64,000 nucleotides of DNA, taken from NCBI GenBank assembly GCA_041662205.1, contig JBAZSZ010000002.1, positions 103,266 through 167,265 on the forward strand, given 5' to 3'. Under the pieces are notes generated by a model that saw nothing but the letters and a program-made list of their open reading frames with translations, made no database searches and had not been told where the DNA came from. A program made the translations under genes and the position numbers. This DNA is from Minisyncoccota bacterium. GTDB lineage: Bacteria > Patescibacteriota > Minisyncoccia > Phycocordibacterales > UBA9973. Positions 12,491-57,300 of this stretch are shown piece by piece. Position 1 is the first letter of the stretch. Each line of letters starts with the position of its first letter.

Positions 12491-14105
12491 CAAAACAAAA
12501 GTGGAACAGGATGTTAAAAATTTAATATCAAAAACACCCAAAGAAGTTTCACATGTAACTAATACGCTCGAAAAAGATGGTTTTGAGGCATATCTAGTTG
12601 GCGGGTGCGTTAGAGATCTTTTGATGTCTAAGGAGCCAAATGACTGGGATATCACAACTAATGCTAAACCAGAGCAAATTATAAGTCTTTTTGAAAAGAC
12701 TGTTTATGAGAATGGCTTTGGTACAGTAGCTGTGGTTGTTCCGCGTGAAACACATCAAGAGGATGTTTCACATGGAACAAACCCTATTCCCTTGTCAGAA
12801 GAGAAAAATATGATTATAGAAGTTACTCCTTATAGAATTGAAGCAAAATATAGCGATTTTAGACATCCAGATGAGGTGAAATTTAGTGATAAGCTGGAGG
12901 ACGATCTTAAAAGACGTGACTTTACGGTTAATGCCATGGCCTTAAACAGTAAAGGACATCTGGTTGATTTTTTTGATGGTATAAAGGACATTAACGAAAA
13001 GACAATAAAGGCAGTAGGGAATCCAGATGATCGTTTTGCTGAAGATGCTCTCAGGATGTTGCGCGCTGTACGTCTTTCCTGCCAGCTTAATTTTTCTGTG
13101 GCTTATGAAACGATGCAAAGTATTTTGAAAAATTCAGAGTTGATAAAAAAAATTTCTGAAGAAAGAATTCGTGATGAGTTTGTAAAAATAATTATGTCGG
13201 AAAATTCCGCGAATGGAATCGTGATGTTACAAAAATTTAATTTGTTAAAAAATATAATTCCTGAACTAGAAGAGGGAATAGGCTGTGAACAATCCGGTGA
13301 GCATATTTACGACGTTTGGAATCATTTACTTCATGCATTAGAACATGCGACAAACAAGAATTGGTCTTTGGAAATAAGGCTCGCAGCGCTTTTCCATGAT
13401 ATTGGGAAGCCCCGAAGTAGGCGTATTGCGGAGCGAATTGATAATTTATCAGGTCCTCGGTCTTTCGGGTCCCTACCCCGGCCAGACCATGACAAATCAT
13501 CAATTCGCTCCGCAAAGAAAAAATTTACTTTTTACGGTCATGAAGTTGTCAGCACGCGGATGGCAAAAAAAATAATGGAGAGATTAAAATTTCCTAAAAA
13601 AGAAATTGAGTTAGTAGAAAAACTTGTTCGCAATCATATGTTTTTTTCTGACACAGAATTAATCACGCTGTCAGCCGTGCGAAGAATTATTGCAAAAGTT
13701 GGAAAAGAAAATATTTGGTTATTGATGAATGTCCGTGAGTGCGACAGGGTAGGGATGAAGAAAAAAGAAACCCCATATCGCCTTCGGAAGTATTTTGCCA
13801 TGATTGAGGAAGCCCTGAGAGATCCTATTTCTGTCGGACAGTTGAAAATCAACGGTGAATTTATGATAAAAGAGCTTGGAATCACTCCCGGACCACGCAT
13901 GGGGTGGATTTTACATGCATTACTCGAAGAAGTGCTAGATGCTCCGGAGAAAAACACGGTAGAACATCTGTCGGAGTTGGTAAAATCTTTAAATATGTTG
14001 GGGGATACAGAACTAAAAACTCTTGGTCTACGTGGAAAAGAAAAAAAAGAAGAATTAGAAGAAGAAGAGGTTGTGAAGCTTCACAAAAAGCATGGAGTGA
14101 AATAA
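12486..14105 (+). CDS. cca: CCA-adding tRNA nucleotidyltransferase with an HD domain, carrying an in-frame palindromic element insertion
   Basis: GGCVRDLL, RRDFTVNA, and the HD motif LFHDIGKP...FYGHE with about 26 extra residues (..NLSGPRSFGSLPRPDHD..) between GKP and FYGHE, encoded by repeat copy D. The start is a GTG at 12486 (overlaps the tRNA-Arg 3' end by 5 nt) or at 12501; there is no early in-frame ATG. Confidence 0.8.
   Translation: MHKTKVEQDVKNLISKTPKEVSHVTNTLEKDGFEAYLVGGCVRDLLMSKEPNDWDITTNAKPEQIISLFEKTVYENGFGTVAVVVPRETHQEDVSHGTNPIPLSEEKNMIIEVTPYRIEAKYSDFRHPDEVKFSDKLEDDLKRRDFTVNAMALNSKGHLVDFFDGIKDINEKTIKAVGNPDDRFAEDALRMLRAVRLSCQLNFSVAYETMQSILKNSELIKKISEERIRDEFVKIIMSENSANGIVMLQKFNLLKNIIPELEEGIGCEQSGEHIYDVWNHLLHALEHATNKNWSLEIRLAALFHDIGKPRSRRIAERIDNLSGPRSFGSLPRPDHDKSSIRSAKKKFTFYGHEVVSTRMAKKIMERLKFPKKEIELVEKLVRNHMFFSDTELITLSAVRRIIAKVGKENIWLLMNVRECDRVGMKKKETPYRLRKYFAMIEEALRDPISVGQLKINGEFMIKELGITPGPRMGWILHALLEEVLDAPEKNTVEHLSELVKSLNMLGDTELKTLGLRGKEKKEELEEEEVVKLHKKHGVK
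13443..13499 (-). repeat. Palindromic element copy D (reverse orientation) inside cca
   Basis: aggtcctcggtctttcgggtccctaccccggccagaccatgac. The variant central hairpin ttcggg/ccccgg contains one G-U-type mismatch. Confidence 0.75.
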
Positions 14106-19530: not shown

Positions 19531-19567
19531 ATTGCAATTATAACAGTTTTGTGTTAATATTGTGAAT

Positions 19568-19831
19568 ATGTTAAACACCAAGAAAAAGCAAGCAGTAATA
19601 AAGAAAAATCAAATACACGAGAAAGACACAGGCTCTTCAGAGGTGCAGGTGGCTGTTTTGTCTACTCAGATTTCCGAATTGGCAAAACATTTAAAGAAAC
19701 ATAAAAAAGATAATCATTCTCGTCGAGGGTTGATCAAGATGGTCGCTGACAGACGTACTCATTTGAAATATTTGGAACGAAAAAGCAAGCCTCGTTACGC
19801 TGCATTGATGAAGAAAATGGATCTCGCGTAA
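19568..19831 (+). CDS. rpsO: 30S ribosomal protein S15
   Basis: [42 protein letters not shown]. The ATG at 19568 is preceded closely by a TAATAT -10-like hexamer. Confidence 0.9.
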
Positions 19832-19838
19832 AGGAAGG

Positions 19839-19970
19839 TTTTTAAAATTCTTTCTTGGCATACTTTTTATAAAGCAATCTATCTGGCGAAGCTTCGCCAG
19901 CGAACTGCTCGGCTCGTCAGCCTGCGCAAGGCTTTCTAAAAAATACGCCTGCAACAAATTTTAAAAATCT
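19839..19970. repeat. Structured GC-rich intergenic element, family T1, copy 1 (downstream of rpsO)
   Basis: tttttataaagcAATCTATCTGGCGAAGCTTCGCCAGCGAACTGCTCGGCTCGTCAGCCTGCGCAAGgctttctaaaaaa, with outer AT-rich inverted arms. It ends at the TATAAT of the NYN gene. Confidence 0.7.
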
Positions 19971-19984
19971 GCTATAATACACAC

Positions 19985-20494
19985 ATGACAGTTATAAAAC
20001 ATAAAGAACAAAGAGTTGGGGTTTTTATTGATACTCAAAATTTATATCATAGTGCTCGCAATCTATATCAGGCGCGGGTTAATTTCGGTGCAGTTTTGAA
20101 AGATGCAGTAGCGGGGAGGAAGCTCGTGCGGGCAGTGGCTTATGTTATCACCACTGAAGCAGGAGATGAAAAGAATTTTTTTGAAGCGCTTTCGAAGCTT
20201 GGTATAGAAACCAAAACTAAAGACTTACAAATATTTGCTGGGGGTGCAAAAAAAGCGGATTGGGATGTAGGGCTCGCTGTGGATGCGATAAAAATGTCAC
20301 CCCGCCTCGATTCCGTGGTAATAATTTCTGGTGATGGAGACTTCATTCCATTAGTGGAATATTTACAGACGAATGGTGTACAAGTAGAAGTCGTTTCATT
20401 TGGTAAATCAACATCTAGTAAACTCCGTGAAGTGGTAGATGATTTTGTGGACCTATCTGAAAATCCTAGAAAATATTTAATGGGGGTGAAATAA
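19985..20494 (+). CDS. NYN/LabA-like domain protein (PIN-like predicted RNase) sitting between rpsO and pnp
   Basis: VGVFIDTQNLYHSARN and VIISGDGDFIPLVEYLQ, matching the NYN-domain pattern. Confidence 0.7.
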   Translation: MTVIKHKEQRVGVFIDTQNLYHSARNLYQARVNFGAVLKDAVAGRKLVRAVAYVITTEAGDEKNFFEALSKLGIETKTKDLQIFAGGAKKADWDVGLAVDAIKMSPRLDSVVIISGDGDFIPLVEYLQTNGVQVEVVSFGKSTSSKLREVVDDFVDLSENPRKYLMGVK

Positions 20495-20676
20495 TTTCTA
20501 TCTTTTTGCTTTTTGGTTATAAAATGCTAGGATAAATAATAGTTCATTAAAATTATTTATTAGTTAATCAGGTTCGCGTTTAGACACAAAGTAGTGTTTC
20601 CACTTATTATTTAAGTTGTGAAACAACACTGTAGTCTGGATACGAACCCTGCCCGCCTCTGGTGGGTGAAAAAAAG

Positions 20677-22791
20677 ATGCAAAAAAAAGAATATAGTGTA
20701 GAGATCGGAGGGAAAACATTGACTGCTATTTTTACTGATTTAGCAGAACAGGCACAAGGCTCTGTAATATTAAAATATGGAGAGACTATAGTCCTCGCCA
20801 CCGCCTGTATGTCGAAAGATAAACAACAAGGCTTGGGATTTTTTAATTTGACTGTTGACTATGTGGAGAAATTTTATGCAGCTGGAAAAATTTTAGGTTC
20901 TCGTTTTGTTCGCCGAGAAGGCAAGCCATCTGAAGAAGCGATCTTGGCTTGCCGAGTGATAGACCGCACTCTTCGTCCTCTCTTTGATCAAACGATGCGA
21001 CATGCGGTACAGATAATAGTGACAGTACTTTCAGTTGATGATAACGACCCGACTATTTTAGCTGTAAATGCAGCTTCTCTCGCTCTCGCTGTTTCTAATA
21101 TTCCATGGAATGGGCCTATTGGTTGTGTGCGCATTGGCAAGTATGACAACGATGACTTGAGGATTAATCCACCACAAAATTTACGAATAGACGAGGATAC
21201 TCAATATAAATTTGATCTGACTGTTTGCGGAAAAGACGGTAATATAAATATGATAGAAGCTTCTGCGCGCCAAAGTGAAGAGGAGGAATTAGAGTCTGCC
21301 TTGCAAAAAGCAAGTGAGGAAATAAAAAAGTTGGAAGATTTTCAAAAAAATATTATTAAAGAAATTGGCAAAGAAAAAAGAATCATAGAAAAAGAAAAAA
21401 TATCAGAAGAGTCAGTAGCTTTATTCAATGAAAATATTTTACCCAAGATGGAAGATGCTATTTTTGCGGGACCTGGTAAAACTAAAATTGAAGCATTGCA
21501 TAATGTTTGGAATAAAATGGTGAGGGATGGTTTTAAGGATCGTGAAGATTTTAGTTTGGAAGATAATTTATTTGATGATACAGAAAATGAAATTTTGCAT
21601 AAAAAAGCGATAGAAGAAAATAAGCGGGCAGATGGTAGGGGGATGGATGAACTTCGAGATCTATATGCGCAAGCAGGAGGTTTGTCATCACAGCTTCATG
21701 GTTCTGGAATTTTTTATCGTGGAGGCACCCATGTACTTTCGGTTTTAACTTTAGGAGGACCAGAAGATAGAAATTTGGTGGACGGTTTACAATTGAAAGT
21801 AGAAAAAAGATTTATGCATCATTACAATTTTCCGCCATACTCTGCGGGAGAAGTGGGAAGGGCAGGTTTTACTAATCGTCGAGAAGTCGGGCATGGAGCG
21901 CTCGCTCAAAAAGCTCTTGCCATGGTGTTGCCAGCTGTTTCCGAATTTCCATATACGATGCGTTTGGTTTCTGAATCAATGGCTTCAAATGGTTCAACCT
22001 CTCAAGCATCTATTTGTGCTTCCGTTCTTGCCTTGATGGATGGGGGAGTACCGATCTTAGCTCCTGTTGCTGGTATCGCTATGGGACTAATGTATGAGTC
22101 TGATGCAAAATATAAAATCTTAACGGATATTCAAGGCCCTGAAGATCATCATGGAGATATGGATTTTAAAATTGCAGGAACTAGAGAGGGAGTGACGGCT
22201 ATCCAGCTCGATGTAAAAGTGGAAGGTGTACCAATAAAAATATTAGGTGAAGCGATGAGACAATCTAAAGGTGCACGAGTGGCTATCATCGACAGAATTG
22301 AAAAAGAAATTTCAAAACCACGCTCAGATATTTCTCCAAATGCGCCAAAAATTTTGATTATCAAAATTGACCCGAATAAAATTGGTTTAGTAATAGGTGG
22401 TGGAGGAAAAACAATTAAAGAAATTAAAGAAAAATCTGGCGCTGAAATAACTATTGAAGATGATGGAACGGTATATTTGACAGGAAAAGATGGAGCAGCC
22501 GAAAAAGCAAAAGAGATAGTGGAAGAAATGACCCATGAATTTAAAGTTGGCGAAATGTTGAAAGGCGAGGTTGTAAAGATTGCTGACTTTGGAGCTTTTG
22601 TGGCCCTGAATCCTTTTACTGATGGCATGGTGCATATTTCTGAAATAGCACCATTTCGTGTTGAGAGAGTATCGGATATAATAAAAGAAGGTATGATAGT
22701 GCCAGTAAAGGTGATAAAGATAGATAGTGAGAGAGGTAAGATCAGCTTATCTATTAAAGAAGCAGATAAGGATTTCTTCAAAAAGCTTTAA
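20677..22791 (+). CDS. pnp: Polynucleotide phosphorylase
   Basis: Two RNase PH-like domains plus C-terminal KH (IGLVIGGGGKTIKEI) and S1 (GEVVKIADFGAFVAL) domains. An ATG at 20677 follows the GTG at 20662. Confidence 0.9.
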   Translation: MQKKEYSVEIGGKTLTAIFTDLAEQAQGSVILKYGETIVLATACMSKDKQQGLGFFNLTVDYVEKFYAAGKILGSRFVRREGKPSEEAILACRVIDRTLRPLFDQTMRHAVQIIVTVLSVDDNDPTILAVNAASLALAVSNIPWNGPIGCVRIGKYDNDDLRINPPQNLRIDEDTQYKFDLTVCGKDGNINMIEASARQSEEEELESALQKASEEIKKLEDFQKNIIKEIGKEKRIIEKEKISEESVALFNENILPKMEDAIFAGPGKTKIEALHNVWNKMVRDGFKDREDFSLEDNLFDDTENEILHKKAIEENKRADGRGMDELRDLYAQAGGLSSQLHGSGIFYRGGTHVLSVLTLGGPEDRNLVDGLQLKVEKRFMHHYNFPPYSAGEVGRAGFTNRREVGHGALAQKALAMVLPAVSEFPYTMRLVSESMASNGSTSQASICASVLALMDGGVPILAPVAGIAMGLMYESDAKYKILTDIQGPEDHHGDMDFKIAGTREGVTAIQLDVKVEGVPIKILGEAMRQSKGARVAIIDRIEKEISKPRSDISPNAPKILIIKIDPNKIGLVIGGGGKTIKEIKEKSGAEITIEDDGTVYLTGKDGAAEKAKEIVEEMTHEFKVGEMLKGEVVKIADFGAFVALNPFTDGMVHISEIAPFRVERVSDIIKEGMIVPVKVIKIDSERGKISLSIKEADKDFFKKL

Positions 22792-22818
22792 AATTCTTTA
22801 TTTTATAAACTTTTCTTT

Positions 22819-22888
22819 GGTACGGATTTTTTGAAGCTTAAAAAATCCTGAAGTTCTCGGCTCGTCAGCCTCGAAACCCCGCGAAAAG
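22819..22888 (+). repeat. Structured intergenic element, family T2, copy 1 (downstream of pnp)
   Basis: GGTACGGATTTTTTgaagcttAAAAAATCCTGAAGTTCTCGGCTCGTCAGCCTCGAAACCCC. It shares the CTCGGCTCGTCAGCC core with T1. Confidence 0.7.
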
Positions 22889-22913
22889 TTATATAATAAA
22901 GAATTAACGCTAT

Positions 22914-23804
22914 ATGGAAAAAGATAATGAAATATTTCCCCACCCAACGGGTGTAGGCGGGGAACATAAAATAGTGGAGACTTTTGCCGGAGATATGGCA
23001 GAGATACTTGAAAATGACAGAGAGGGTTTGGTAAAAAAAATAATCCATAAGGAGAAAGAATATGAAGAGAAAAAGAAAAACTTTTCTCCAGAATCAAAGG
23101 AAAATAAACTTTTTATGTTTGTTAGTTTTTTATTTTTATTTTTTGCTTTATTAATTTTATTTTTTTTCTTTGTTAAAAAAGAAAATAATGTAGTGCAAGT
23201 TGAAAAAAGATTTACCCCTATTATTTTTAACGACCGGAATACCTTTTTAGAAGTTTCAGAACTTAAAAAAGAAGAAATAGCGCAGACTGTTTTAGGAGAA
23301 ATCAATACTACTAAAGTAAAAGTAGGAGGAGTCGAAGGAATTTATCTAACAGAAAACAAACAAATCATCGGATTCAGAAGATTTCTCACTTTAATTAAGA
23401 GTAATTTTGTTAGCAATATTTCTTTGAGCGACAACACACTTTTTTTTAATGACAATTTCTTATTGGGTGGGGTGATTCTTGAATCTAAGAACTTTTTTAT
23501 CTTACTCAAAGTACGTTCTTTTGCTGATGTTTTTGATGCCCTACATTCATGGGAGGAGAAAATGTTTTTTGATCTGAATGGATTTTTTGGATTGAATCTT
23601 TCAGCTGATACTAATTATCTTTTAACGAAAGAATTTCAAGATGGGATCGTTGAAAATAAAAATGCTCGTATTCTTTATGATAAAGACAATAAAGCAGTTT
23701 TAATGTATGTTTTTGGAGATGATAATTCTGTTGTTATCTCTAACTCACAAAACGCAGTACATGAGATTATGTTGCGTCTCGCTTCTGCTCAAAAAAAGCA
23801 ATAA
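22914..23804 (+). CDS. Hypothetical single-pass membrane protein
   Basis: ORF track. One TM segment, LFMFVSFLFLFFALLILFFFFV. Confidence 0.5.
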   Translation: MEKDNEIFPHPTGVGGEHKIVETFAGDMAEILENDREGLVKKIIHKEKEYEEKKKNFSPESKENKLFMFVSFLFLFFALLILFFFFVKKENNVVQVEKRFTPIIFNDRNTFLEVSELKKEEIAQTVLGEINTTKVKVGGVEGIYLTENKQIIGFRRFLTLIKSNFVSNISLSDNTLFFNDNFLLGGVILESKNFFILLKVRSFADVFDALHSWEEKMFFDLNGFFGLNLSADTNYLLTKEFQDGIVENKNARILYDKDNKAVLMYVFGDDNSVVISNSQNAVHEIMLRLASAQKKQ

Positions 23805-24902: not shown

Positions 24903-24955
24903 TTTCCCCCACCCCAGGGATAGGGGAAATCCCCTATCCCTGGGGTGGGGGAAAC
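24903..24955. repeat. Perfect 53-bp palindrome (25-bp arms, 3-nt spacer) between divergent metK and the dksA-like gene
   Basis: TTTCCCCCACCCCAGGGATAGGGGA-aat-TCCCCTATCCCTGGGGTGGGGGAAA. GC-rich in an AT-rich genome. Its GGGATAGGG centre resembles the core of the in-frame element family. Confidence 0.85.
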
Positions 24956-27902: not shown

Positions 27903-28178
27903 TTAGGCAACCATGTCTTTCAAACCTTTTGCAGGTCGGAATTTTGGAACTTTCTTTGCAGCTACTTTTACTTGCTCTCCAGTCTTTGGATTGCGAGCCA
28001 TTCTTGCAGCTCTTGCCTTTACGGAAAAGATTCCGAATCCAGCGATTGAAACTTCACCACCCTTTTTCAAGGTCTGGATGATAGCGTCAAACATTGAATC
28101 AACGATTTCCTCAGCTTGTACTTTTGTACCACCGAGCTTTCCATGTACTAATTCGGCTAATGCTTGTTTATTCATATA
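27903..28178 (-). CDS. hup: DNA-binding protein HU
   Basis: MNKQALAELVHGKLGGTKVQAEEIVDSMFDAIIQTLKKGGEVSIAGFGIFSVKARAARMARNPKTGEQVKVAAKKVPKFRPAKGLKD. The ORF-track extension upstream to 28442 is unsupported. Confidence 0.85.
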   Translation of the reverse strand, partial: YMNKQALAELVHGKLGGTKVQAEEIVDSMFDAIIQTLKKGGEVSIAGFGIFSVKARAARMARNPKTGEQVKVAAKKVPKFRPAKGLKDMVA

Positions 28179-28313
28179 TATTTTAAGTTGATATTTATAA
28201 TATTTCGACCAATTAACCCTTATTTTTGATACCTCTACATTATATATCAAGGGTTTTTTAAGGCAAGTCTTTTGAAAAATTAAAAAATCTTTATAAATAC
28301 CAATCTTTTTAGG

Positions 28314-28385
28314 GTACAGATTTTTCAATAAAAGATTAGACTTAAAAAATCCTGAAGTTTGCTCGCCGTCGCTCGCAAAACCCCC
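28314..28385 (+). repeat. Family T2, degenerate copy 3 (downstream of rny, upstream of hup)
   Basis: GGTACAGATTTTTcaataaaagattagacttAAAAAATCCTGAAGTTTGCTCGCCGTCGCTCGCAAAACCCCC. Confidence 0.55.
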
Positions 28386-28410
28386 TAAAAAAATTGTATT
28401 TAAAAGATTT

Positions 28411-29940
28411 TTACCGCGCGTATTCAATAATTCGGGTTTCACGAATCATAGTAACTTTTATTTCTCCTGGATATTTGAGTTCTTGTTCTATTTTTATAGC
28501 TATATCGCGAGCCATAATTTTGGCTTCAGCATCTGATATTTTTTCTGGAGTAACAAAGATACGGATTTCACGCCCAGCTTGGAGAGCATATGATTTTTCA
28601 ACAGCGGGGAAAGCGTTTACTAGTGCTTCGAGTTCTTGAAGTCTTTTTAGGTAATTTTCTACTGAGTCTCGGCGTGCGCCAGGGCGTCCACCCGAAATCG
28701 AGTCTGCTGTTTGCACAATGATGGACTCAATAGTTTCATAAGGGTAATCCTCATGGTGGCTTTTCATGGCAGTGATGATGCGTTCATCTGCTCCGAATTT
28801 TTGTAAAATACGGATACCTATTTCAACATGCGTGCCTTGCACTTCATGATCTAGCGCTTTACCAATATCGTGCACCAAGGCCCCAGCTTTAGCTATCGCT
28901 ACGTCTGCACCTAACTCTTCTGCGAGCATGCCAGCGATATGGGCCATCTCAATAGAATGTTGCAAAACGTTTTGTCCGTAACTTGTGCGGAAATACAATC
29001 GTCCGATGATGGCGATGATACGTGGATCAAAATTAAATATTCCACATTCATAGACTGCTTGTTCTCCTTTTTCTTTTATTATTTTATTTATTTCTTCTTT
29101 GGCTTTTTCCACTAGCTCTTCGATCTTGGCTGGTTGAATACGGCCGTCTAAGATCAGATTTTCTAAAGCTAGTCTGGCGACTTGTCTCCTAATAGGGTCA
29201 AATGAAGAAATCACTATGGAGCCAGGGGTATCATCCACAATGAGTTCCACTCCAGAAGCTCTTTCAAAAGCGCGTATATTTCTGCCTTCTTTCCCGATTA
29301 TTTTACCTTTGATTTCATTGTTTGGAATAGCGACTACGGTGGTCATCAATTCAGAAGCCGTGCTAGAAGATAGGCGCTGAATAGAAGTTGCCAAAATATC
29401 TTTGGCTCTGCGGTCTAGTTTTTCTTCGTTACTGTTTTCTAGTTTTTGGATTCTAACTAAAATATCTTCTTCATATTTTTTTTCAACATCTTTTAAAAGC
29501 TCATCTTTGGCTTCTACTTCAGTTAATTTTGCTACTCTTTCTAATTCTATTATTTTTTCTGCTTCTATTTTAGATACTTTTTCTTGGATTTTTTTTATTT
29601 CTTCTACTTTTACTTTAATATTTTCTACTTCTTTGTTTACTTCGACTTGTCGCGCATCTAAAAACTCGTCTTTTTTAATGAGTCTTTTTTCTGTTTCTTT
29701 AAATTCAATTTCTTTCTTTTTTTCTTCTTCTTTTAGATAAGTGAGTTGTTCTTCAGATTTCTTTTTTGCTTCGTCGGTGATTTTTTGTGCTTCTTCTTTT
29801 GCGCCGACCATCATTTGTTTGATGTCTATTTCAATGGATCTTCTTTTTCCAAGGGCAATAATCAGACGAAGATAATACCCGATGCCAACACCAAAAAAGA
29901 GCGCTATGGCACTTATTAGAATTATTATTGTTATACTCAT
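28411..29940 (-). CDS. rny: Ribonuclease Y
   Basis: N-terminal TM helix, coiled coil, KH domain (GKIIGKEGRNIRAFE), and HD domain (HSIEMAHIAG...LVHDIGKA). Confidence 0.9.
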   Translation of the reverse strand: MSITIIILISAIALFFGVGIGYYLRLIIALGKRRSIEIDIKQMMVGAKEEAQKITDEAKKKSEEQLTYLKEEEKKKEIEFKETEKRLIKKDEFLDARQVEVNKEVENIKVKVEEIKKIQEKVSKIEAEKIIELERVAKLTEVEAKDELLKDVEKKYEEDILVRIQKLENSNEEKLDRRAKDILATSIQRLSSSTASELMTTVVAIPNNEIKGKIIGKEGRNIRAFERASGVELIVDDTPGSIVISSFDPIRRQVARLALENLILDGRIQPAKIEELVEKAKEEINKIIKEKGEQAVYECGIFNFDPRIIAIIGRLYFRTSYGQNVLQHSIEMAHIAGMLAEELGADVAIAKAGALVHDIGKALDHEVQGTHVEIGIRILQKFGADERIITAMKSHHEDYPYETIESIIVQTADSISGGRPGARRDSVENYLKRLQELEALVNAFPAVEKSYALQAGREIRIFVTPEKISDAEAKIMARDIAIKIEQELKYPGEIKVTMIRETRIIEYAR

Positions 29941-32515: not shown

Positions 32516-33322
32516 ATGATTATCGACAAATACAACAAAAGAGCCAAGAAAATAAATTCACTTTTATGCGTTGGTCTGGATACGGATTTTGCAAAAATTC
32601 CAAAAAGATTTTTGAAAAAGAAATTTCCGCAATTTGAATTTAATAAATGGATTATCGAAGAGACCCACGAATATGCCGCTGCTTATAAACCCAATAGCGC
32701 TTTTTATGAAGCTAGGGGTGATAAAGGAATACGAGAATTAAAAATGACGATGGATTATCTGATAAAAAATCATCCAGATATTTTTACGATTCTTGACGCC
32801 AAGAGGGGGGACATAGGAAATACGAATAATGGTTACGTTGCTTCTATTTTCGATTGGTTTGGCTTTGACGCTTTCACTGTGTATCCATATTTAGGACAGG
32901 AAGCAGTGCAACCGATTTTAGATAGAAAAGATAAAGGAGTGATTTTGCTTTGCCGTACTTCAAATCCTGGAGCAAAAGATTTTCAAGATTTAAAGATTAA
33001 TGGAAAACCACTTTGGCAGATTGTGGCAGAGAAAGTTTCTAAAGAGTGGAATAAGAATAAAAATTGTATGCTCGTCGTCGGGGCGACTTATCCTAAAGAG
33101 ATGAAAAAAATTCGCTCTATTGTGGGGGATATGACTTTTCTAGCTCCAGGCGTGGGTGCTCAAGGTGGGGAATTAAAAGAAATGCTAAAAGCTGGATTAA
33201 ACAGTAAAGGTTTAGGCTTAATAATAAATTCTTCTAGGGGTATAATTTTTTCCAATAATCCAAAAATTGAAGCCAAAAAACTACAAGACGAGATTAGGAA
33301 ACACAAGCAGGAAATTAATTAA
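32516..33322 (+). CDS. pyrF: Orotidine-5'-phosphate decarboxylase (type 2)
   Basis: LCVGLDTD and ILDAKRGDIGNT. Confidence 0.8.
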   Translation: MIIDKYNKRAKKINSLLCVGLDTDFAKIPKRFLKKKFPQFEFNKWIIEETHEYAAAYKPNSAFYEARGDKGIRELKMTMDYLIKNHPDIFTILDAKRGDIGNTNNGYVASIFDWFGFDAFTVYPYLGQEAVQPILDRKDKGVILLCRTSNPGAKDFQDLKINGKPLWQIVAEKVSKEWNKNKNCMLVVGATYPKEMKKIRSIVGDMTFLAPGVGAQGGELKEMLKAGLNSKGLGLIINSSRGIIFSNNPKIEAKKLQDEIRKHKQEIN

Positions 33323-33333
33323 AAAAGAAAATA

Positions 33334-33445
33334 ACTAAAATAGGAAAATATCAAAATTTATAAAGCAATCTATCTGGTGTTGCTACACCAGCGAACTGCT
33401 CGGCCCGTCGGCCTGCGCAAGGCTTTCTAAATTTTTTATTTTCCT
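33334..33445. repeat. Family T1, copy 2 (downstream of pyrF), flanked by a perfect 18-bp inverted repeat
   Basis: aactaaaataggaaaata...ataaagcAATCTATCTGGTGTTGCTACACCAGCGAACTGCTCGGCCCGTCGGCCTGCGCAAGgctttctaaa...tattttcctattttagtt. Compensatory substitutions relative to copy 1 in both internal hairpins. Confidence 0.75.
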
Positions 33446-33631
33446 ATTTTAGTTTTCCACTTTTTCCACTTTTATCTAGGCTTGCTTCTGTGTGTAGAAA
33501 TGTTACTATCATTTTTAATGTATCAACAGAGATTAAAAGAGAAAAAGTCTGGGGAAAAGTTTGCCACTTCTATCTTTTTAAGCTCCATTATCAATATTTT
33601 ATTTTAAAACCCCTTTTGGGGTTATTTTTTT

Positions 33632-34900
33632 ATGAATCAAAAAACATCTTATATAAAGACAGCTTCTTATGAAGCAAAAAATGGAGAAATCGATAAAGTT
33701 TTGCTTTTATATTCTGGTGGGTTAGATACTTCGGTAATGCTGAAATGGATCCAAGATAACTACAATGCAAAAGTAGTGACTTTGACTATGAACCTCGGGC
33801 AACAGCATGATGATCTAAAAGCTATTGAAAAAAAGGCTAAGAAACTCGGGGCATTAAAAACTTATACTTTAGATGTCAGGGAAGAGTTTGCGACTGAATA
33901 TATTGCGAAAGGAATAAAGGCGAATGCTCATTATCAAGGAGAGTATCGTCTTTCGACTCCCATTGGTCGTGCCATTGTGGCTCAAAAAGCGATAGAAATT
34001 GCTCACAAGGAAGGTATCAAGTGTATTGCTCATGGTTGTACTGGTAAAGGAAATGATCAGGTGCGACTCGATGGGTATGTTTTAGCTCTTGATAAAAATA
34101 TGAAAATTATCGCTCCAGTTAGAGAGTGGGGAATGGATCGAGAAGCAGAAATCAGATATGCAGAGGAGAATAAAATTCCTGTTCCAGCGACGATTGATTT
34201 TCCTTATAGTGATGATGACAATATGTGGGGAATCACTTGGGAAGGTGGAGAAATTACAGATCCGAAACTTATAGTGCCAGTAGAAAAATTCTTAACCACC
34301 TATACTCTTCCTAAAAATGCGCCTGATAAAGCTGAATTGGTCAAATTGTCTTTTAATAAAGGAATTCCTACAGCAATCAATGGCAAGAAATTAAAACTTT
34401 CCGAACTCATAATTAATTTAAATAAAATTGCTGGAAAGCATGGAGTGGGAACAGTGCAACTTCTCGAAGACCGTTTGGTAGGTTTAAAAAATAGAGGCAT
34501 CTACGAACATCCTGGAGCGCACACTATTATCGAGGCGCATAGAAATTTGGAGAAATATGTTTCTACTAGACATCTCAATGAATTAAAAGAAATGATGGAT
34601 ATAAAGTGGGGCTATATGTGTTACGGTGCTTTGTGGTTTGATCAAACCATGGATGCTATTAACGCATTTAATGATTCCGTAAATGAGAGGGTTACTGGAG
34701 AGGTGACGGTGAGACTTTACAAAGGAAATCTAGAAGTAGTAGCTCTTACTTCTCCTTATGCGCTTTCTTACACTTCTTTTAACAACAGCGAAGGATATGA
34801 TTTTAATGTAAATAATAGCGCAGGATTTACAGAAGTATATACTTTACAGATGAGACTCGCTAAAGAAATTGATGATAAGAAAAATAAAAAAAATAAATAA
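33632..34900 (+). CDS. argG: Argininosuccinate synthase
   Basis: PP-loop LLYSGGLDTSV and a conserved C-terminal domain. Confidence 0.9.
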   Translation: MNQKTSYIKTASYEAKNGEIDKVLLLYSGGLDTSVMLKWIQDNYNAKVVTLTMNLGQQHDDLKAIEKKAKKLGALKTYTLDVREEFATEYIAKGIKANAHYQGEYRLSTPIGRAIVAQKAIEIAHKEGIKCIAHGCTGKGNDQVRLDGYVLALDKNMKIIAPVREWGMDREAEIRYAEENKIPVPATIDFPYSDDDNMWGITWEGGEITDPKLIVPVEKFLTTYTLPKNAPDKAELVKLSFNKGIPTAINGKKLKLSELIINLNKIAGKHGVGTVQLLEDRLVGLKNRGIYEHPGAHTIIEAHRNLEKYVSTRHLNELKEMMDIKWGYMCYGALWFDQTMDAINAFNDSVNERVTGEVTVRLYKGNLEVVALTSPYALSYTSFNNSEGYDFNVNNSAGFTEVYTLQMRLAKEIDDKKNKKNK

Positions 34901-44824: not shown

Positions 44825-46597
44825 ATGCAAATTAACGAAGAACAATTAAAGAAATTTATTTTAGATGAAGGGTTGGTATCTGAAACAGATCTCAAGGATG
44901 CATTTAAAAAAGCTGAAATTAAAAAACAAAAAATTGGGGACGTTTTATTTTCAGATGGGAAAATATCTGAAACTGATTTAAAGCGAATAGAGGCTTATGT
45001 TTTAGGAATACCATTCGTTAGTTTGAATGATAAAAAAATAGATTTTTCTGTTCTTTCTTTTGTGCCTGAACCAATTGCGCGCAATTATAATATTGTCGCT
45101 TATAAAAAAAGTGAAAACAGCTTAGAGGTGGCGATGCTTGATGTTGATGACCTGCCGGTGATTGATTTTATTAAAAAACGTTCCGGCTTAAAAATTTTAC
45201 CTAGGTTAACAGATACAGCTTCTATCAGATCTGTCTTGGTTCAGTATCGACAAAGTTTAGAATCTGAATTTCGAGATATTATTCAAAAAGAAAATGCTAC
45301 TTTAAATAATTCTTTAGGAGAAGACAGTGAAGGTTCTGCAGAAAAAACTGGTGAAAAGTCTGAATTGGAATTAAAACAAATGGCAGAGGATCTGCCAGTG
45401 GTAAAAATAGTAGATTCTTTAATTTTTCATGCAATTTTACAAAATGCGTCCGACATTCATATTGAGCCTGGAGAACATGAGCTCACTGTGCGTTACCGAA
45501 TAGATGGAATCTTGCATGACGCCATGGTCCTTGAGAAAAATGCTGGTTCAGGGATAACTGCGCGTATCAAAGTATTAGCCAATTTAAAATTGGATGAAAA
45601 AAGATTGCCCCAAGACGGCAGATTTAAAATAGAACAAAATGGAGAAAAAATTTCTTTTCGTGTTTCTACTCTACCTACTTTTTTTGGAGAGAAGACAGTG
45701 ATCAGAATTTTAAAAGAAAACACCCATGGTTTTTCTTTAGAAGCGCTTGGTTTTCATGGTGAAGGATTAGAGCGAATACATAACTCATTGAAACAAAAAA
45801 CTGGGATGGTGCTCGCTACTGGTCCGACCGGAAGTGGAAAGACGACTACGCTTTATACTTTGCTTGATATTTTAAATAGACCAGAAGTTAATATTTCAAC
45901 AGTAGAAGATCCTGTCGAATATCAAATGCCTAGAGTCAATCAAACACAGGTTAAACCAGAGATTGGTTTAACTTTTGCCAACGGGCTTCGTTCATTATTG
46001 CGTCAAGATCCGGACATTGTAATGGTGGGAGAAATTCGTGATGGAGAAACAGCTGGATTGGCTATCAATGCTTCGCTTACAGGTCACTTAGTTCTTTCTA
46101 CTATTCATACCAACTCAGCTTCTGGTGCAATTCCAAGACTTATAGATATGGGAGTGGAGCCTTTTTTGATAACCGCCACTGTGAAAACAATTCTAGCTCA
46201 AAGACTAGTGCGTCGACTTACAGCTAATAAAGAAAAATATTTCCTGTCTGATGTAGAGATAAAAAATCTTGCAAAGGTTGTCGATTTAGATAGAGTGTTA
46301 GATTTTTTAAAAATTGAAAAAATTGTGAGTGAAAAAGATGATTGGGAAAAAATTCCTTTTTATAAAGCGATAAAAAATGCTGAATTTGAAGATGGATATT
46401 CGGGTCGGGTTGGGATGCATGAAGTATTAAAAGTTACACCCACTATCAAAGAAATGATTATTAAGGGAAGTTCTCAGGATGATATAGAGGCGCAAGCAAA
46501 AAAAGAAGGAATGATGACTATGATTGAGGATGGAGTTTTCCAAGCAGTATTGGGTTTAACTACCCTTGAAGAAGTGTTCCGAGTTGTTTCAGAATAG
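44825..46597 (+). CDS. pilB: Type IV pilus assembly ATPase PilB (GspE family)
   Basis: N-terminal GSPII-type domain, Walker A GPTGSGKTTTLY, Asp box, Walker B IVMVGEIRD, His box. Confidence 0.9.
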   Translation: MQINEEQLKKFILDEGLVSETDLKDAFKKAEIKKQKIGDVLFSDGKISETDLKRIEAYVLGIPFVSLNDKKIDFSVLSFVPEPIARNYNIVAYKKSENSLEVAMLDVDDLPVIDFIKKRSGLKILPRLTDTASIRSVLVQYRQSLESEFRDIIQKENATLNNSLGEDSEGSAEKTGEKSELELKQMAEDLPVVKIVDSLIFHAILQNASDIHIEPGEHELTVRYRIDGILHDAMVLEKNAGSGITARIKVLANLKLDEKRLPQDGRFKIEQNGEKISFRVSTLPTFFGEKTVIRILKENTHGFSLEALGFHGEGLERIHNSLKQKTGMVLATGPTGSGKTTTLYTLLDILNRPEVNISTVEDPVEYQMPRVNQTQVKPEIGLTFANGLRSLLRQDPDIVMVGEIRDGETAGLAINASLTGHLVLSTIHTNSASGAIPRLIDMGVEPFLITATVKTILAQRLVRRLTANKEKYFLSDVEIKNLAKVVDLDRVLDFLKIEKIVSEKDDWEKIPFYKAIKNAEFEDGYSGRVGMHEVLKVTPTIKEMIIKGSSQDDIEAQAKKEGMMTMIEDGVFQAVLGLTTLEEVFRVVSE

Positions 46598-46605
46598 TTA
46601 GTTGC

Positions 46606-46683
46606 GCTTCTTCCAATTTTTCTTCGGCTCATCCTTCTCGGAGTACCGAGCGGGACCCTACCGAAAGAAAAATTGGAAGAAGC
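46606..46683. repeat. Compound GC-containing palindrome between pilB and pilC
   Basis: cttcttccaatttttcttCGG...CTCGGagtaCCGAG...CCGaagaaaaattggaagaag. An 18-bp outer inverted repeat encloses an inner palindrome. The right arm overlaps the possible TTG start of pilC. Confidence 0.6.
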
Positions 46684-47911
46684 TTTACAAAAAATGTTAT
46701 TTTTATACAGCGCAAAATCAAAAACAGGGGAAATTTTGGAAAGTGTCTTGGACGCCACTGATCGTTATACTCTTGCTCGAGAGTTGCGTTCTCGGGGTTA
46801 TGCTCCATTGTCGATTACAAAAAAAAATAAATATTTTAGTGATAAATTTTTAGCCCTGTCTGATATTTTTTCAAAAATAAAAGTTGCAGAGCAGATCATA
46901 TTGACTAAAAATTTAAGTGGAATGATCAAAGCAGGACTCTCCCTTTCCAGAGCATTATCGGTTTTAAAAAAGCAAACAAAAAATCCTAAACTAATTAAAA
47001 TTTTAACTTCTTTAATAAATGATATAAATTCTGGAGAAACTTTTTCTTTTGCTCTTTCAAAATTTCCAAATGTTTTTTCTAAACTTTTTACCTCGATGGC
47101 TCGTGCTGGGGAAGAATCAGGAAATCTGTCTGGAGCTCTTTCTGATATTGGATTAAATCTGGAAAAGTCTTATTCTTTGAATAAGAAAATTAAAGGCGCG
47201 CTTATTTACCCAGGAGTGATCATGTCAGCGATGGTCGTTATTGGTGTTTTGATGTTTGCTTTTGTGGTGCCAACTTTGGCAGGTACATTCAAAGAACTTG
47301 GAGTGGTATTACCTTTTTCTACTCAGGTCCTTATATTTTTTGGTAATTTTTTCTCGCATAATTTAATCCTAACTTTTCTAATAATTTTCAGTACAGCTCT
47401 CGGTATCATTTCTCTTTTTCAAGCTAAATTCATGGCGCCGTATATTGATTTTATTATTTTAAAAATTCCAGTTGTGAATAATTTAACTAAAGAATTAAAT
47501 ACTGCCCGCACGGCTCGCACTATTTCTTCGCTTTTAATTTCTGGTGTTTCTTTAACTCGAACTATTGAAATAACTGAAGATGTAGTGCAAAATATTTATT
47601 ATAAAAAAGTTTTAAATGAAGCAAAATTAGCGATAGAAAAAGGAGAGCCATTTTCAAAGGCATTCGAAGCTCATCTTGATTTATATCCTGTAATGATGTC
47701 CGAAATGATTGAGGTCGGAGAGGAAACAGGAAAACTATCTGATATGTTGCTTGAAATTGCTTTATTTTATGAAGGAGAGGTAGAAAATAAAACTAAAAAT
47801 CTTTCCACTATTATCGAGCCTTTACTCATGATTGTTATCGGATCGGGGGTTGGGTTTTTTGCTATTTCAATGATTTCCCCATTGTATTCAATTTTAGGAA
47901 GTATAAATTAA
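46673..47911 (+). CDS. pilC: Type IV pilus platform protein PilC (T2SS F-domain x2)
   Basis: Two GspF-like repeats with TM helices. The ORF-track start is a TTG at 46673; an ATG at 46694 is an alternative. Confidence 0.85.
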   Translation: MEEALQKMLFLYSAKSKTGEILESVLDATDRYTLARELRSRGYAPLSITKKNKYFSDKFLALSDIFSKIKVAEQIILTKNLSGMIKAGLSLSRALSVLKKQTKNPKLIKILTSLINDINSGETFSFALSKFPNVFSKLFTSMARAGEESGNLSGALSDIGLNLEKSYSLNKKIKGALIYPGVIMSAMVVIGVLMFAFVVPTLAGTFKELGVVLPFSTQVLIFFGNFFSHNLILTFLIIFSTALGIISLFQAKFMAPYIDFIILKIPVVNNLTKELNTARTARTISSLLISGVSLTRTIEITEDVVQNIYYKKVLNEAKLAIEKGEPFSKAFEAHLDLYPVMMSEMIEVGEETGKLSDMLLEIALFYEGEVENKTKNLSTIIEPLLMIVIGSGVGFFAISMISPLYSILGSIN

Positions 47912-52419: not shown

Positions 52420-52795
52420 TTTTTTTGGCAGCTTCTACTGATTCATTATCTTTATATGTTTTTATTGGAAACATAGGTAGAGCATCTTTTAAATATCTTG
52501 GAATTAGGTGAACGTGGAAATGCGGGACGTCTTTGCCTACGACTGATAACTGTACATAATCGCACCCAATTCCTTTTTTAACGGCTAGTATTAATTTTTT
52601 TGCTAATGTAAAAATTTCTGAAATGATTCCATCATCTGCGTCTTGTATCCAGACAATATGCTTTTTAGGAATTATTAAAAGGTGTCCATCGGAAACTGGC
52701 TGGATGTCTAAAAACACCAAAAAATCTTGGTTTTCATGGATTTTTGTGCAAGGGATTTCTCCTTTGACTATTTTACAAAAAATGCAGTTTTCCAT
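52403..52795 (-). CDS. HIT-family (histidine triad) hydrolase
   Basis: CIFCKI zinc-binding region and HFHVHLIP histidine triad. Confidence 0.75.
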   Translation of the reverse strand: MENCIFCKIVKGEIPCTKIHENQDFLVFLDIQPVSDGHLLIIPKKHIVWIQDADDGIISEIFTLAKKLILAVKKGIGCDYVQLSVVGKDVPHFHVHLIPRYLKDALPMFPIKTYKDNESVEAAKKIIEAL

Positions 52796-52812
52796 AGAAA
52801 GTTTTATAAAAT

Positions 52813-52875
52813 AAAGTTTTGGAATGGTCTGGCTGGGATAGGGACCCAGAGAACCGAGGACCTGAGAAAACTTTG
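52813..52875 (+). repeat. Palindromic element copy F, intergenic (HIT gene / recJ), with compensatory stem changes
   Basis: aaagttttggaATGGTCTGGCTGGGATAGGGACCCAGAGAACCGAGGACCtgagaaaacttt. The stem CTGGG/CCCAG replaces CCGGG/CCCGG, a double compensatory change. The outer arms aaagtttt/aaaacttt extend the palindrome to about 63 bp. Confidence 0.8.
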
Positions 52876-52895
52876 ATTTTATAAAACTTTCTATA

Positions 52896-55082: not shown

Positions 55083-56591
55083 ATGCGAGATAGAATTTTT
55101 TATACAATTTGTTTTGGTTTTTTATTTGGAGTGCTGACGCGCTCTTTTATTTTGGTAGATTTATATTTGGTTATTTTGTTTAGTGTGATTGCTGGTGCAT
55201 TGTTTATATTTTTTACATTAGTCTCAAAAAGTGATTGGACCTGTCTGCGCAGGCAGGGAATTATAGTTTCTATTTTTATTTTGGCTTTTAGTTTAGGTGT
55301 TTACAGATTTAATATGGTGGATGTGCCGAATTCTCTTGTTTTTGAAAATCAAGTGGGACAAGAAGTAACTTTTTCTGGAGAAATTACAGACGAGCCTAGT
55401 ATAAAAGAGAATAACCAGCAATTGATAGTAAAAATAAAAAAAGAAAAAGATAAAACACATATTTTATTAACCACTAATTTAGATATAGATTATAAATATG
55501 GAGATGAGATAAATTTTTTTGGCGAATTAGAAAAGCCGGGAAATTTTATTACTGATCAGGGAAAAGAATTTGACTATATAAATTATTTACGGAAAGATGG
55601 GATTTTGTATGTGATGAGTTATCCAACAATTTCCATTGTTTCGCGCGGGAATGGTAACTCAATTCAAAGCATCTTATTTTCTATTAAAGATAAGTTTTTG
55701 GAGAAAATAAATTTTGCTATTAATGCCCCTGAGAATCTTCTTATGGGCGGGCTTATTTTGGGCGAAAAATCTTCTTTTAGCCAGGAGCTGAGACAGAATT
55801 TTGTGGATACTGGTACGATACACATCGTTGCTCTTTCTGGATACAATGTGACAATTGTGGCTGAATGGATTATGAAATTATTCTCTTATGTAAATTTTGG
55901 CTTGCCTGCACAGGCAGGTATTGGAATGGGAATATTAACAATAATTTTATTCATTATAATGACTGGTGGAATTTCGACCGCTATTCGGGCGGGGATAATG
56001 GCGACTTTGGCATTAGTGGCCCGCGCGACTGGGCGCAACTATGATGTCGCGCGAGCTTTATTATTGGCTGGGTTGTTTATGATAATTCTTAATCCTTTTC
56101 TTCTTGTTTTTGATGCTTCTTTTCAACTTTCTTTTTTGGCGACAGCCGCTGTGATATTTATTGCTCCTAGAATTGAAAAATATTTTCTATGGGTACCGAA
56201 AACTTTTGAGTTACGAGATATAGTATCAGTCACTTGCGCTGCTTATATTTTTGTTTTTCCTTTTATTCTTTATAAAATGGGTAATTTTTCACTCGTAGCC
56301 TTACCAGCTAATATTTTAATTTTGCCCTTTATTCCTCTTACGATGATGTTTGGGTTTGTTACTGGTTTTCTTGGACTTGTTTATTATGTATTGGCAGTGC
56401 CTGTGGGTTATCTTTCTTATTTATTTTTACATTATGAGCTCGGAGTAATAAGTTTTTTTGCTGATCTACCTTTTGCGTCTTTTACTTTTCCAGATTTTCC
56501 ACTTTTGCTAACAGTTTTAATATACATCTATTTTATTTATAAACTTTTTGGCAGAAATATAATAAGTTTTTTTAGAGAAAATCAAGAATAA
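55083..56591 (+). CDS. comEC: ComEC/Rec2-family competence channel protein (DUF4131 + Competence domain only; no MBL domain)
   Basis: Polytopic membrane protein with the Competence-domain motif GTIHIVALSGYNVTIVA. Confidence 0.7.
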   Translation: MRDRIFYTICFGFLFGVLTRSFILVDLYLVILFSVIAGALFIFFTLVSKSDWTCLRRQGIIVSIFILAFSLGVYRFNMVDVPNSLVFENQVGQEVTFSGEITDEPSIKENNQQLIVKIKKEKDKTHILLTTNLDIDYKYGDEINFFGELEKPGNFITDQGKEFDYINYLRKDGILYVMSYPTISIVSRGNGNSIQSILFSIKDKFLEKINFAINAPENLLMGGLILGEKSSFSQELRQNFVDTGTIHIVALSGYNVTIVAEWIMKLFSYVNFGLPAQAGIGMGILTIILFIIMTGGISTAIRAGIMATLALVARATGRNYDVARALLLAGLFMIILNPFLLVFDASFQLSFLATAAVIFIAPRIEKYFLWVPKTFELRDIVSVTCAAYIFVFPFILYKMGNFSLVALPANILILPFIPLTMMFGFVTGFLGLVYYVLAVPVGYLSYLFLHYELGVISFFADLPFASFTFPDFPLLLTVLIYIYFIYKLFGRNIISFFRENQE

Positions 56592-56600
56592 TGTTTTTAA

Positions 56601-56662
56601 GGGGTTTCGAGGCTGTCGAGCCGAGAATTTCAGGATTTTTCAAGCTTCGAAAAATTTGTACC
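56601..56662 (-). repeat. Family T2, copy 2 (reverse orientation) between the convergent comEC and sodA genes
   Basis: The reverse complement reads GGTACAAATTTTTCGAAGCTTGAAAAATCCTGAAATTCTCGGCTCGACAGCCTCGAAACCCC. Confidence 0.7.
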
Positions 56663-56688
56663 GGCAAAAATATTACTCTTGATTTTCT

Positions 56689-57300
56689 CTACTGAGAATT
56701 TTTGAAATTTTCCTCTACCATTTCCCAATTTAGATTTGCGAAAAAGTCTTCAACATATTGTTTTTTACCACTAGGTTGATAGTCTGTCACAAAAGCGTGT
56801 TCCCACATATCAATACCCAAAATCCAATTAAGACCATTTAATTGTCCTAAATGATGCTCATCTATCCAAGCATCTATAAATTGATTTGTTTCTTTGTCCC
56901 AATATAATACGGCCCAGCCGATCCCGCGAGTCATGGCTAGAGATTTAAACTTAGTAAGCCAAGCATCAAAAAATAATCCTTGTTTTTCTATAGCATTTTT
57001 AAATGTAGAATTTGTTGGTAGTGGCCTTGCTCCTCCTTCAAGAGATTTGAAATAATATTCATGATTACGCATGCCGTTGAATTCAAAACCAAATCTTCTA
57101 TGTAATTCTCCTATCAAATAAATAACACCCGGTGTTAATTCTCTTATTTCAGACATTTTGTCATATTCTTCAAGCTTTTCCAAAATTAGGTTTGTGTTTT
57201 TTACATAGCCAGCATAAAGCTTCAAATGTTCTTCAATATTTTTTGAAGAGATACCTTTTAAAGTTCCAATATTAAATTTTTTTTCTTCAAACTTCTTCAT
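56689..57300 (-). CDS. sodA: Fe/Mn superoxide dismutase
   Basis: LHRRFGFEFNGMRNHEYYF and GIDMWEHAFVTDYQ (D-x-W-E-H). Confidence 0.85.
   Translation of the reverse strand: MKKFEEKKFNIGTLKGISSKNIEEHLKLYAGYVKNTNLILEKLEEYDKMSEIRELTPGVIYLIGELHRRFGFEFNGMRNHEYYFKSLEGGARPLPTNSTFKNAIEKQGLFFDAWLTKFKSLAMTRGIGWAVLYWDKETNQFIDAWIDEHHLGQLNGLNWILGIDMWEHAFVTDYQPSGKKQYVEDFFANLNWEMVEENFKNSQ

Follow-up and report, generated by a model that had tools for sequence, protein, structure and literature searches.

The stretch of DNA analysed here (the window), 64,000 nt from a Minisyncoccota bacterium, carries two copies of an interspersed structured repeat that we call T1. Copy 1 (19836..19970, + strand; covariance-model match of 107 bits) has arms of the subfamily termed class A and lies between rpsO and a gene for an NYN-domain protein, a predicted RNase, that is followed by pnp. 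Copy 2 (33322..33465, + strand), delineated by its inverted repeat, its fold, and a covariance-model match of 104 bits, is a palindromic element with arms of 45 and 44 nt around a 55-nt core and begins 5 nt past the stop codon of pyrF. Between copy 2 and argG (33474-33631) the window contains a promoter-like CTTGCTT-17-TACTAT, a candidate leaderless small ORF about 8 nt further on (MYQQRLKEKKSGEKFATSIFLSSIINILF), and a canonical terminator (33608-33633) whose end coincides with the argG ATG; four related loci (L177, L179, L180, and L183) keep both the promoter and the MYQ.RLKEKK start, and Rfam gave no match for this interval. The sequence TTTTCCACT is tandemly duplicated immediately right of copy 2 (33453-33470) and single in the relatives, and this duplication could be a trace left by an earlier insertion and excision, or else a motif upstream of the promoter; TTTTCCACTTTT is found again at 56495, upstream of a T1b element (see below). 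The PyrF and S15 proteins of the window have no exact-protein match on record.

Copy 2 is bracketed by the 18-mer AACTAAAATAGGAAAATA, which occurs at exactly two sites in the window, 33333-33350 on the + strand and 33437-33454 on the - strand. No further site with fewer than three mismatches was found in the 64 kb, and the 18-mer is absent from all 256 related loci fetched. When the 64-kb window was simulated 100 times with a first-order Markov model, no simulation gave a perfect inverted repeat of at least 18 nt within 150 nt, and the longest was 16 nt. The perfect 18-bp inverted repeat claimed by an earlier note on this DNA is therefore borne out as real and far beyond chance, although its arms need to be moved: the left arm had been placed at 33334-33351, 1 nt off, and the right arm at 33428-33445, 9 nt off, with an end at 33445 that cuts the arm. 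The last 2 nt of the right arm (33453-33454) belong to the native flank TTTTCCAC. The whole imperfect repeat spans 33322-33358 and 33429-33465 with 81% complementarity, and the inner imperfect pairing aaatttataaagc/gctttctaaattt, also noticed earlier, is present at 33355-33366 and 33422-33434 with one T.C mismatch. The description of the copy 1 arms as imperfect and AT-rich was likewise correct, since 19836-19970 has 40-nt arms with an internal loop. As single-stranded RNA, the interval 33325-33465 folds far better than shuffled sequences on both strands (-48.6 kcal/mol, z = -7.4 on the + strand; -53.4 kcal/mol, z = -7.8 on the - strand). The 18-bp repeat forms the distal section of a basal stem of approximately 45 bp, and this stem closes a conserved three-way junction.

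The centre of T1 is a GC-rich 55-nt block inside an AT-rich genome. An alignment of 70 distinct copies and the corresponding pair counts define the conserved three-way-junction core, which in copy 2 occupies 33362..33426 on the + strand and consists of the P1 stem AAAGC/GCUUU (33362-33366 / 33422-33426), the joiner AAUCUAUC (33367-33374), the 6-bp P2 hairpin (33375-33390), the joiner GCGAACUGCUC (33391-33401), the 4-bp P3 hairpin (33402-33413), and the joiner UGCGCAAG (33414-33421). Copies 1 and 2 differ by three compensatory pair changes, located in P2 and P3. The 70 distinct cores align readily, with 94.9% of cells paired in the three-helix structure and changes on both sides in 15 of the 21 pairs. 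The covariation score of the core was 0.457, compared to 0.10 for shuffled alignments and at most 0.10 when the partners were slid. The joiners GCGAACUGCUC and UGCGCAAG were set as invariant by the scan pattern; AAUCUAUC was left free and is nearly invariant across genera.

Strong stem covariation combined with a near-invariant joiner is a classic signature of a selected RNA. It argues for a reading of T1 as a host-beneficial structured RNA module, with the junction on its long stem as a protein- or ligand-binding or processing site, for example operon-boundary punctuation or an RNase III processing element, a 3'-UTR stabiliser, or a small RNA gene; such a module would have spread via duplication and been kept at each locus through selection. 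We regard this reading as a real possibility, though not the expected one, and return to it with each line of evidence that bears on it. The Rfam collection speaks against it, as no family matches T1: at the gathering threshold, Rfam 15 recognised only four tRNAs in the whole window, and local searches with an E limit of 10 matched nothing but the plant microRNA model MIR821, a generic long-hairpin match. Self-cleaving ribozymes were considered and rejected, because a CUGANGA/GAAA hammerhead core, sought by eye, did not survive the P3 covariation and the Rfam ribozyme models were without a match.

Every T1 copy has complementary, AT-rich flanking arms of 23-55 nt. The outer arms (positions 13-42 from the core) scored 21-25 within a locus versus approximately 4 for left-right comparisons between loci, and the arms are therefore complementary yet copy-specific. 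The 18-mer of copy 2 exemplifies this property of the arms in general and is not a shared terminal sequence. An origin of the arms by copying of flanking DNA was rejected, since the arms of the inserted block at copy 2 have no similarity to either flank. A simple copy-and-paste model thus fails to explain arms that are neither flank-derived nor shared among copies. The prolific class A subfamily, which includes copy 1, has a conserved unit of approximately 120 nt in which the internal loop is constant (WAAAACTCTTTCTTGGCATACTTTTTATAAAGC...GCTTTCTAAAAAGTACGCCTGCRACGAGTTTTW); past this unit the inverted repeat extends with copy-specific sequence. Dozens of copies preserve the asymmetric internal loops of the class A arms, in favour of an RNA function. 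The arm mismatches point the other way: G.T (110) and A.C (114) are equally frequent, so neither strand is favoured as RNA and no strand can be assigned.

We compared the pyrF site with 80 metagenome loci that encode PyrF relatives of 64-92% amino acid identity. Among these, the covariance model found T1 downstream of pyrF only in L192, where T1 as a whole is inverted, with 91% identity over 113 nt, and joined to a collinear pyrF at the same nucleotide on the left. The contig of L192 (Ga0172379_10005127) terminates inside this inverted copy, as expected if such repeats break metagenome assemblies. Five loci (L178, L179, L180, L184, and L190) have an empty site, in which the pyrF end runs straight into ...AAAG|TTTTCCAC... 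and the promoter-like CTTGCTT-17-TACTAT; relative to them, the window contains an extra block of 125 nt (33328..33452, + strand), the right end of which coincides with the end of the repeat. The syntenic relatives have 78-85% DNA identity, so that loss and gain of the block are indistinguishable in this comparison. The pyrF site of L177 carries an element of the sister family T1b, reversed, together with a GC-stem terminator-like hairpin, and that of L183 carries such a hairpin only. A second polymorphism concerns T1b, which lies between clpP and pyrD in L183 and is missing there from the window and four other relatives. Insertion polymorphism between related genomes is thus seen at both the pyrF and the clpP|pyrD site. 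For the reading as an RNA module, the intact but oppositely oriented T1 at the same site of L192 and the relatives that lack T1 downstream of pyrF are both unfavourable.

The position of copy 2 raises the question of an unusual, possibly bidirectional, intrinsic terminator for pyrF. The element follows the stop codon closely and is itself followed by a T-rich stretch, TTTTCCACTTTTT, and the hairpins of L177 and L183 at the same site are of the canonical kind, with a GC stem and a T-run. However, a terminator scan flagged T1 at neither locus and placed the canonical terminator 150 nt downstream of copy 2, there is no T-run after copy 1, and the conserved junction would be left unexplained. We consider a terminator role unlikely. 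A further type of hairpin, TTTTCC(CCCACACC...GGTGTGGG)GGTTTTCC, was observed between direct TTTTCC repeats downstream of pyrF in L177 (3405-3455) and L183, and resembles a mobile terminator hairpin that has produced a 6-bp duplication. At 24903-24954, between metK and a dksA-like gene, the window has a perfect GC-rich palindrome of 25 nt that starts in a similar way (TTTCCCCCACCCCAGGGATAGGGGAAA...).

The earlier note had interpreted the 18-bp repeat as the architecture of a miniature inverted-repeat transposable element (MITE), classically a deletion derivative of an insertion sequence (IS) whose transposase binds the terminal inverted repeats. Part of this interpretation stands. T1 is a small, non-coding, multi-copy insertion, present or absent among relatives, and inverted repeats bracket the inserted block. 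A profile of the T1 translation compared with 5.8 billion proteins retrieved only four short, spurious hypothetical ORFs and no real protein, and T1 as a coding sequence was rejected on this result. The remainder does not stand, because the 18-mer is unique to copy 2 in the window and the 256 loci, leaving no terminal inverted repeat shared among copies, and because the pattern of conservation is reversed, with a conserved centre and arms that vary between copies. The target-site duplication proposed as a check was not found: the copy 2 flanks (...AAAAG / TTTTCC...) have at most 2 nt in common, and the flanking bases of class A paralogues are complementary (AA/TT, TA/TA, GA/TC) and not direct repeats, therefore giving no target duplication. 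The earlier note had named the lack of any further 18-mer in the genome as what would refute its idea, and the window and the 256 loci contain none, which over this sequence contradicts an IS partner sharing the 18-bp terminal repeat. Transposase Pfam families were represented by none of the 55 ORFs of at least 100 aa in the window, in which a single Xer-type tyrosine recombinase, encoded beside rpsO, is the sole recombinase. Clustering of ORFs over 68 other T1-bearing loci revealed housekeeping synteny only and no partner gene, the recurrent neighbours being the CCA-adding enzyme, MutM, UvrA, Xth, RuvA, DnaK, PNPase, and a Xer-like recombinase. Phage and plasmid collections contained no match to T1, and all 60 of the 60 pattern matches in viral contigs were dismissed as chance matches in GC-rich coding DNA. 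A classical MITE is hence very improbable, and T1 is "MITE-like" only in a loose sense.

A pattern scan with one genome per species returned at least 116 stretches, of which approximately 65 are true; matches in GC-rich organisms had other spacings and were discarded as chance matches in coding DNA. The scan of genomes established at least 73 T1 copies, including the two of the window, with several per genome. The covariance model added approximately 12 further copies in the same loci, among them divergent copies, variants with a 38-nt insertion in P3, and members of T1b, which brings the total to more than 80. The hosts are AT-rich metagenome-assembled genomes (MAGs) labelled Nomurabacteria, Paceibacterota, Minisyncoccia, and Patescibacteria group, and Saccharibacteria in third-party assemblies. 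T1 is a repeat family of Parcubacteria-group Patescibacteria, and a search of the literature, including by the core sequence, yielded no description of it. One 8-kb Nomurabacteria locus contains five T1 copies among ssb-rpsR, efp, recA, and ftsK, and no transposase. Within single genomes, near-identical paralogues extend over 120 nt (L056/L072 and L005/L045), whereas the orthologous rpsO site carries copies that vary from genome to genome; by sequence comparison, this pattern points to within-genome spread or gene conversion.

T1 copies mostly fill the intergenic gap. By called ORFs, the contexts of 70 copies are co-directional sense (25), convergent (20), divergent (13), and co-directional antisense (12). 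These contexts bear on the terminator and RNA readings in both directions. Convergent pairs are over-represented, as would suit a bidirectional terminator, but the copies between divergent genes do not suit one. In favour of an RNA function, sense orientation weakly outnumbers antisense among the co-directional contexts, and the T1 and T1b copies of the window all lie just 3' of a same-strand gene; against it stand the 13 of 70 copies between divergent genes and the 12 that are antisense to both neighbours. In L089, T1 is present at nearly all operon boundaries. The T1 at the orthologous rpsO site shows far higher conservation than the coding DNA around it, and both the rpsO and the class B sites are conserved across genomes with compensatory changes in the arms. 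The hairpin of copy 1 occupies what we take to be the position of the RNase III site in the E. coli rpsO-pnp operon, which also speaks for an RNA function. The order rpsO, T1, NYN-domain gene, pnp, T1b, found in the window at 19562-22791, recurs in L045, L104, L107, and L091. RNA function remains a serious rival on two grounds, the conservation of AAUCUAUC from genus to genus and the stable occupation of some loci whose arms show compensatory changes.

Altogether, the window harbours at least 11 elements of the T1 design (copy-specific AT-rich arms and a GC-rich core), approximately one per 6 kb, comprising two T1, three T1b, five T2, and one T3. T1b consists of GGUACGGAUUUUUUGAAGCUUAAAAAAUCCUGAAGUUCUCGGCUCGUCAGCCUCGAAACCCC on long arms and has the P3 module in common with T1 and a different P2. 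Its three copies lie directly after pnp (22785..22915, + strand; same P3 module and long arms; covariance-model match of 18 bits), in the gap that it fills between convergent comEC-like and sodA-like genes (56560..56705, - strand), and, for a copy that is divergent in sequence, at ~28280-28410 (+ strand); in relatives, T1b was located at L177:3298-3377, L183:611-690, and L090:6458-6538. The ORF 27903-28442 (- strand) has an HU (Bac_DNA_binding) domain only at residues 90-178, and its 89-residue N-terminal extension overlaps the T1b-like element; therefore, the true HU start is probably downstream, and the element is probably intergenic, between the HU and RNase Y genes. T2 has the core GGTCTGGCCGGGATAGGGACCCGGAGAACCGAGGACC on copy-specific arms and occurs at 6705-6820, ~5850-5930, 4614-4651, 13410-13530, and 52780-52910. 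The single T3 element (46590-46700), with the core CGGCTCATCCTTCTCGGAGTACCGAGCGGGACCCTACCG and 19-nt perfect arms, exactly fills the gap between the genes for T2SSE (the type IV pilus ATPase) and T2SSF.

Four of the five T2 copies are inserted in frame within genes, two in UvrD/PcrA (4966-7047, - strand), one in KsgA, and one in the CCA-adding enzyme. Compared to PcrA 1pjr, the helicase copies correspond to approximately 26 and 20 extra residues, placed between motifs Ia/Ib and just before motif IV, respectively. Such sister elements inside ORFs, a setting in which RNA processing or termination would do harm, argue against both the RNA and the terminator reading. T1 itself is almost always intergenic. 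The one case inside an ORF is the M1 aminopeptidase of L036, where T1 is in frame; its description as a clean 40-aa insertion was rejected, as the net gain over solved homologues is approximately 16-19 aa, which makes it a single imperfect example. The same aminopeptidase N ORF (reverse strand of L036) has an extra 21-aa GC-rich segment, NPSSKRRGGFPLPLRRGSAKGEG, at residues ~209-229 relative to solved homologues, which may be another inserted element.

Among known repeats, T1 and its sister families most resemble by design those that combine a palindromic structure with several families and in-frame copies. Rickettsia palindromic elements (RPE), reportedly described by Ogata and colleagues in 2000, form several coexisting families of palindromic repeats of approximately 100-150 bp in a reduced genome, with copies that are similar over their whole length and located in intergenic regions and also in frame within essential genes. 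To our knowledge, they have no transposase and no clear target duplication. The present elements likewise are palindromic, fall into multiple families, and include in-frame copies within protein genes (T2 in uvrD/pcrA, ksgA, and cca; T1 once, in the L036 aminopeptidase). In contrast to RPE, T1 conserves only its GC-rich core and has copy-specific arms, and the likeness is one of design; homology of T1 to RPE-1..RPE-10 is unlikely because the host belongs to a different phylum.

The Correia elements of Neisseria and the ERIC/IRU elements of enterobacteria are intergenic palindromic repeats of approximately 100-150 bp that occur in either orientation, are present or absent among relatives, and are co-transcribed into long hairpins cleavable by RNase III or RNase E. 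T1 is like them in size, intergenic palindromic form, use of either orientation, and presence/absence. However, Correia elements have conserved 26-bp terminal inverted repeats and a TA duplication, and ERIC has a consensus that is conserved throughout, whereas T1 has neither and instead conserves a three-way-junction centre with covarying hairpins. REP/BIME elements with their RAYT proteins and integron attC sites provide another parallel, as they are recognised as folded single strands by structure, their stems vary while the fold is kept, and they leave no classical target duplication. REP sequences, though, are 20-40 nt long with a RAYT gene nearby, while T1 elements measure 100-165 nt, and no Y1 transposase (RAYT, Y1 HUH) was detected in the window or among the recurrent neighbours. 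The attC sites are defined by conserved ends (RYYYAAC / GTTRRRY), a variable centre, and cassette arrays, none of which apply to T1: its ends, read by eye, do not fit RYYYAAC / GTTRRRY, and its centre rather than its ends is conserved.

Considering all these data, T1 is a new and probably mobile palindromic repeat family. The explanation we favour, with some confidence, is that the 18-bp repeat belongs to this palindromic interspersed repeat family and that T1 is a non-autonomous selfish insertion element of the RPE/ERIC/Correia kind. T1 would be, or would recently have been, such an element. The conserved junction with its free yet always-paired stems, the near absence of G.U pairs, the lack of strand bias, and the inversion in place suggest recognition of a folded single strand and upkeep of arm pairing in the DNA itself. 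How T1 would transpose is entirely inferred, given that no transposase, target duplication, or shared terminal sequence was found. T1 may spread as DNA via a route that depends on a folded single strand or a cruciform, with the conserved junction as a putative recognition site for a trans-acting enzyme encoded elsewhere. Hairpin-templated correction (quasipalindrome template switching), selection, or the two together may maintain the complementarity of the arms. After its insertion 5 nt past the pyrF stop codon, copy 2 would be co-transcribed and give the pyrF mRNA a long 3' hairpin, which could be a target for RNase III or could protect the 3' end.

A bolder and rather doubtful proposal is that T1, T1b, T2, and T3 constitute a new class of structure-defined hairpin elements of ultra-small Patescibacteria genomes, in which the folded junction is the mobile or selected unit and the arms are copy-specific. 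Two variants fit this proposal: an enzyme acting on folded single-stranded DNA or RNA that leaves no target duplication, and a genome-wide RNA punctuation or processing signal. Palindromic interspersed repeats are known as a kind; what appears to be new is the architecture of a junction on copy-specific arms, the host group, and the density in a streamlined genome.

Patescibacteria genomes measure approximately 1 Mb and contain very little non-coding DNA. Despite this streamlining, the 64-kb window holds at least 11 structured palindromic elements, four of them inside essential genes. Elements of the T1 type break assemblies, as in L192, create spurious small ORFs, and add peptide insertions to proteins. 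The near-invariance of the junction across Nomurabacteria, Paceibacterota, and Minisyncoccia MAGs, together with its absence from Rfam, points to an unrecognised structure-reading mobile-DNA mechanism or RNA signal in these bacteria.
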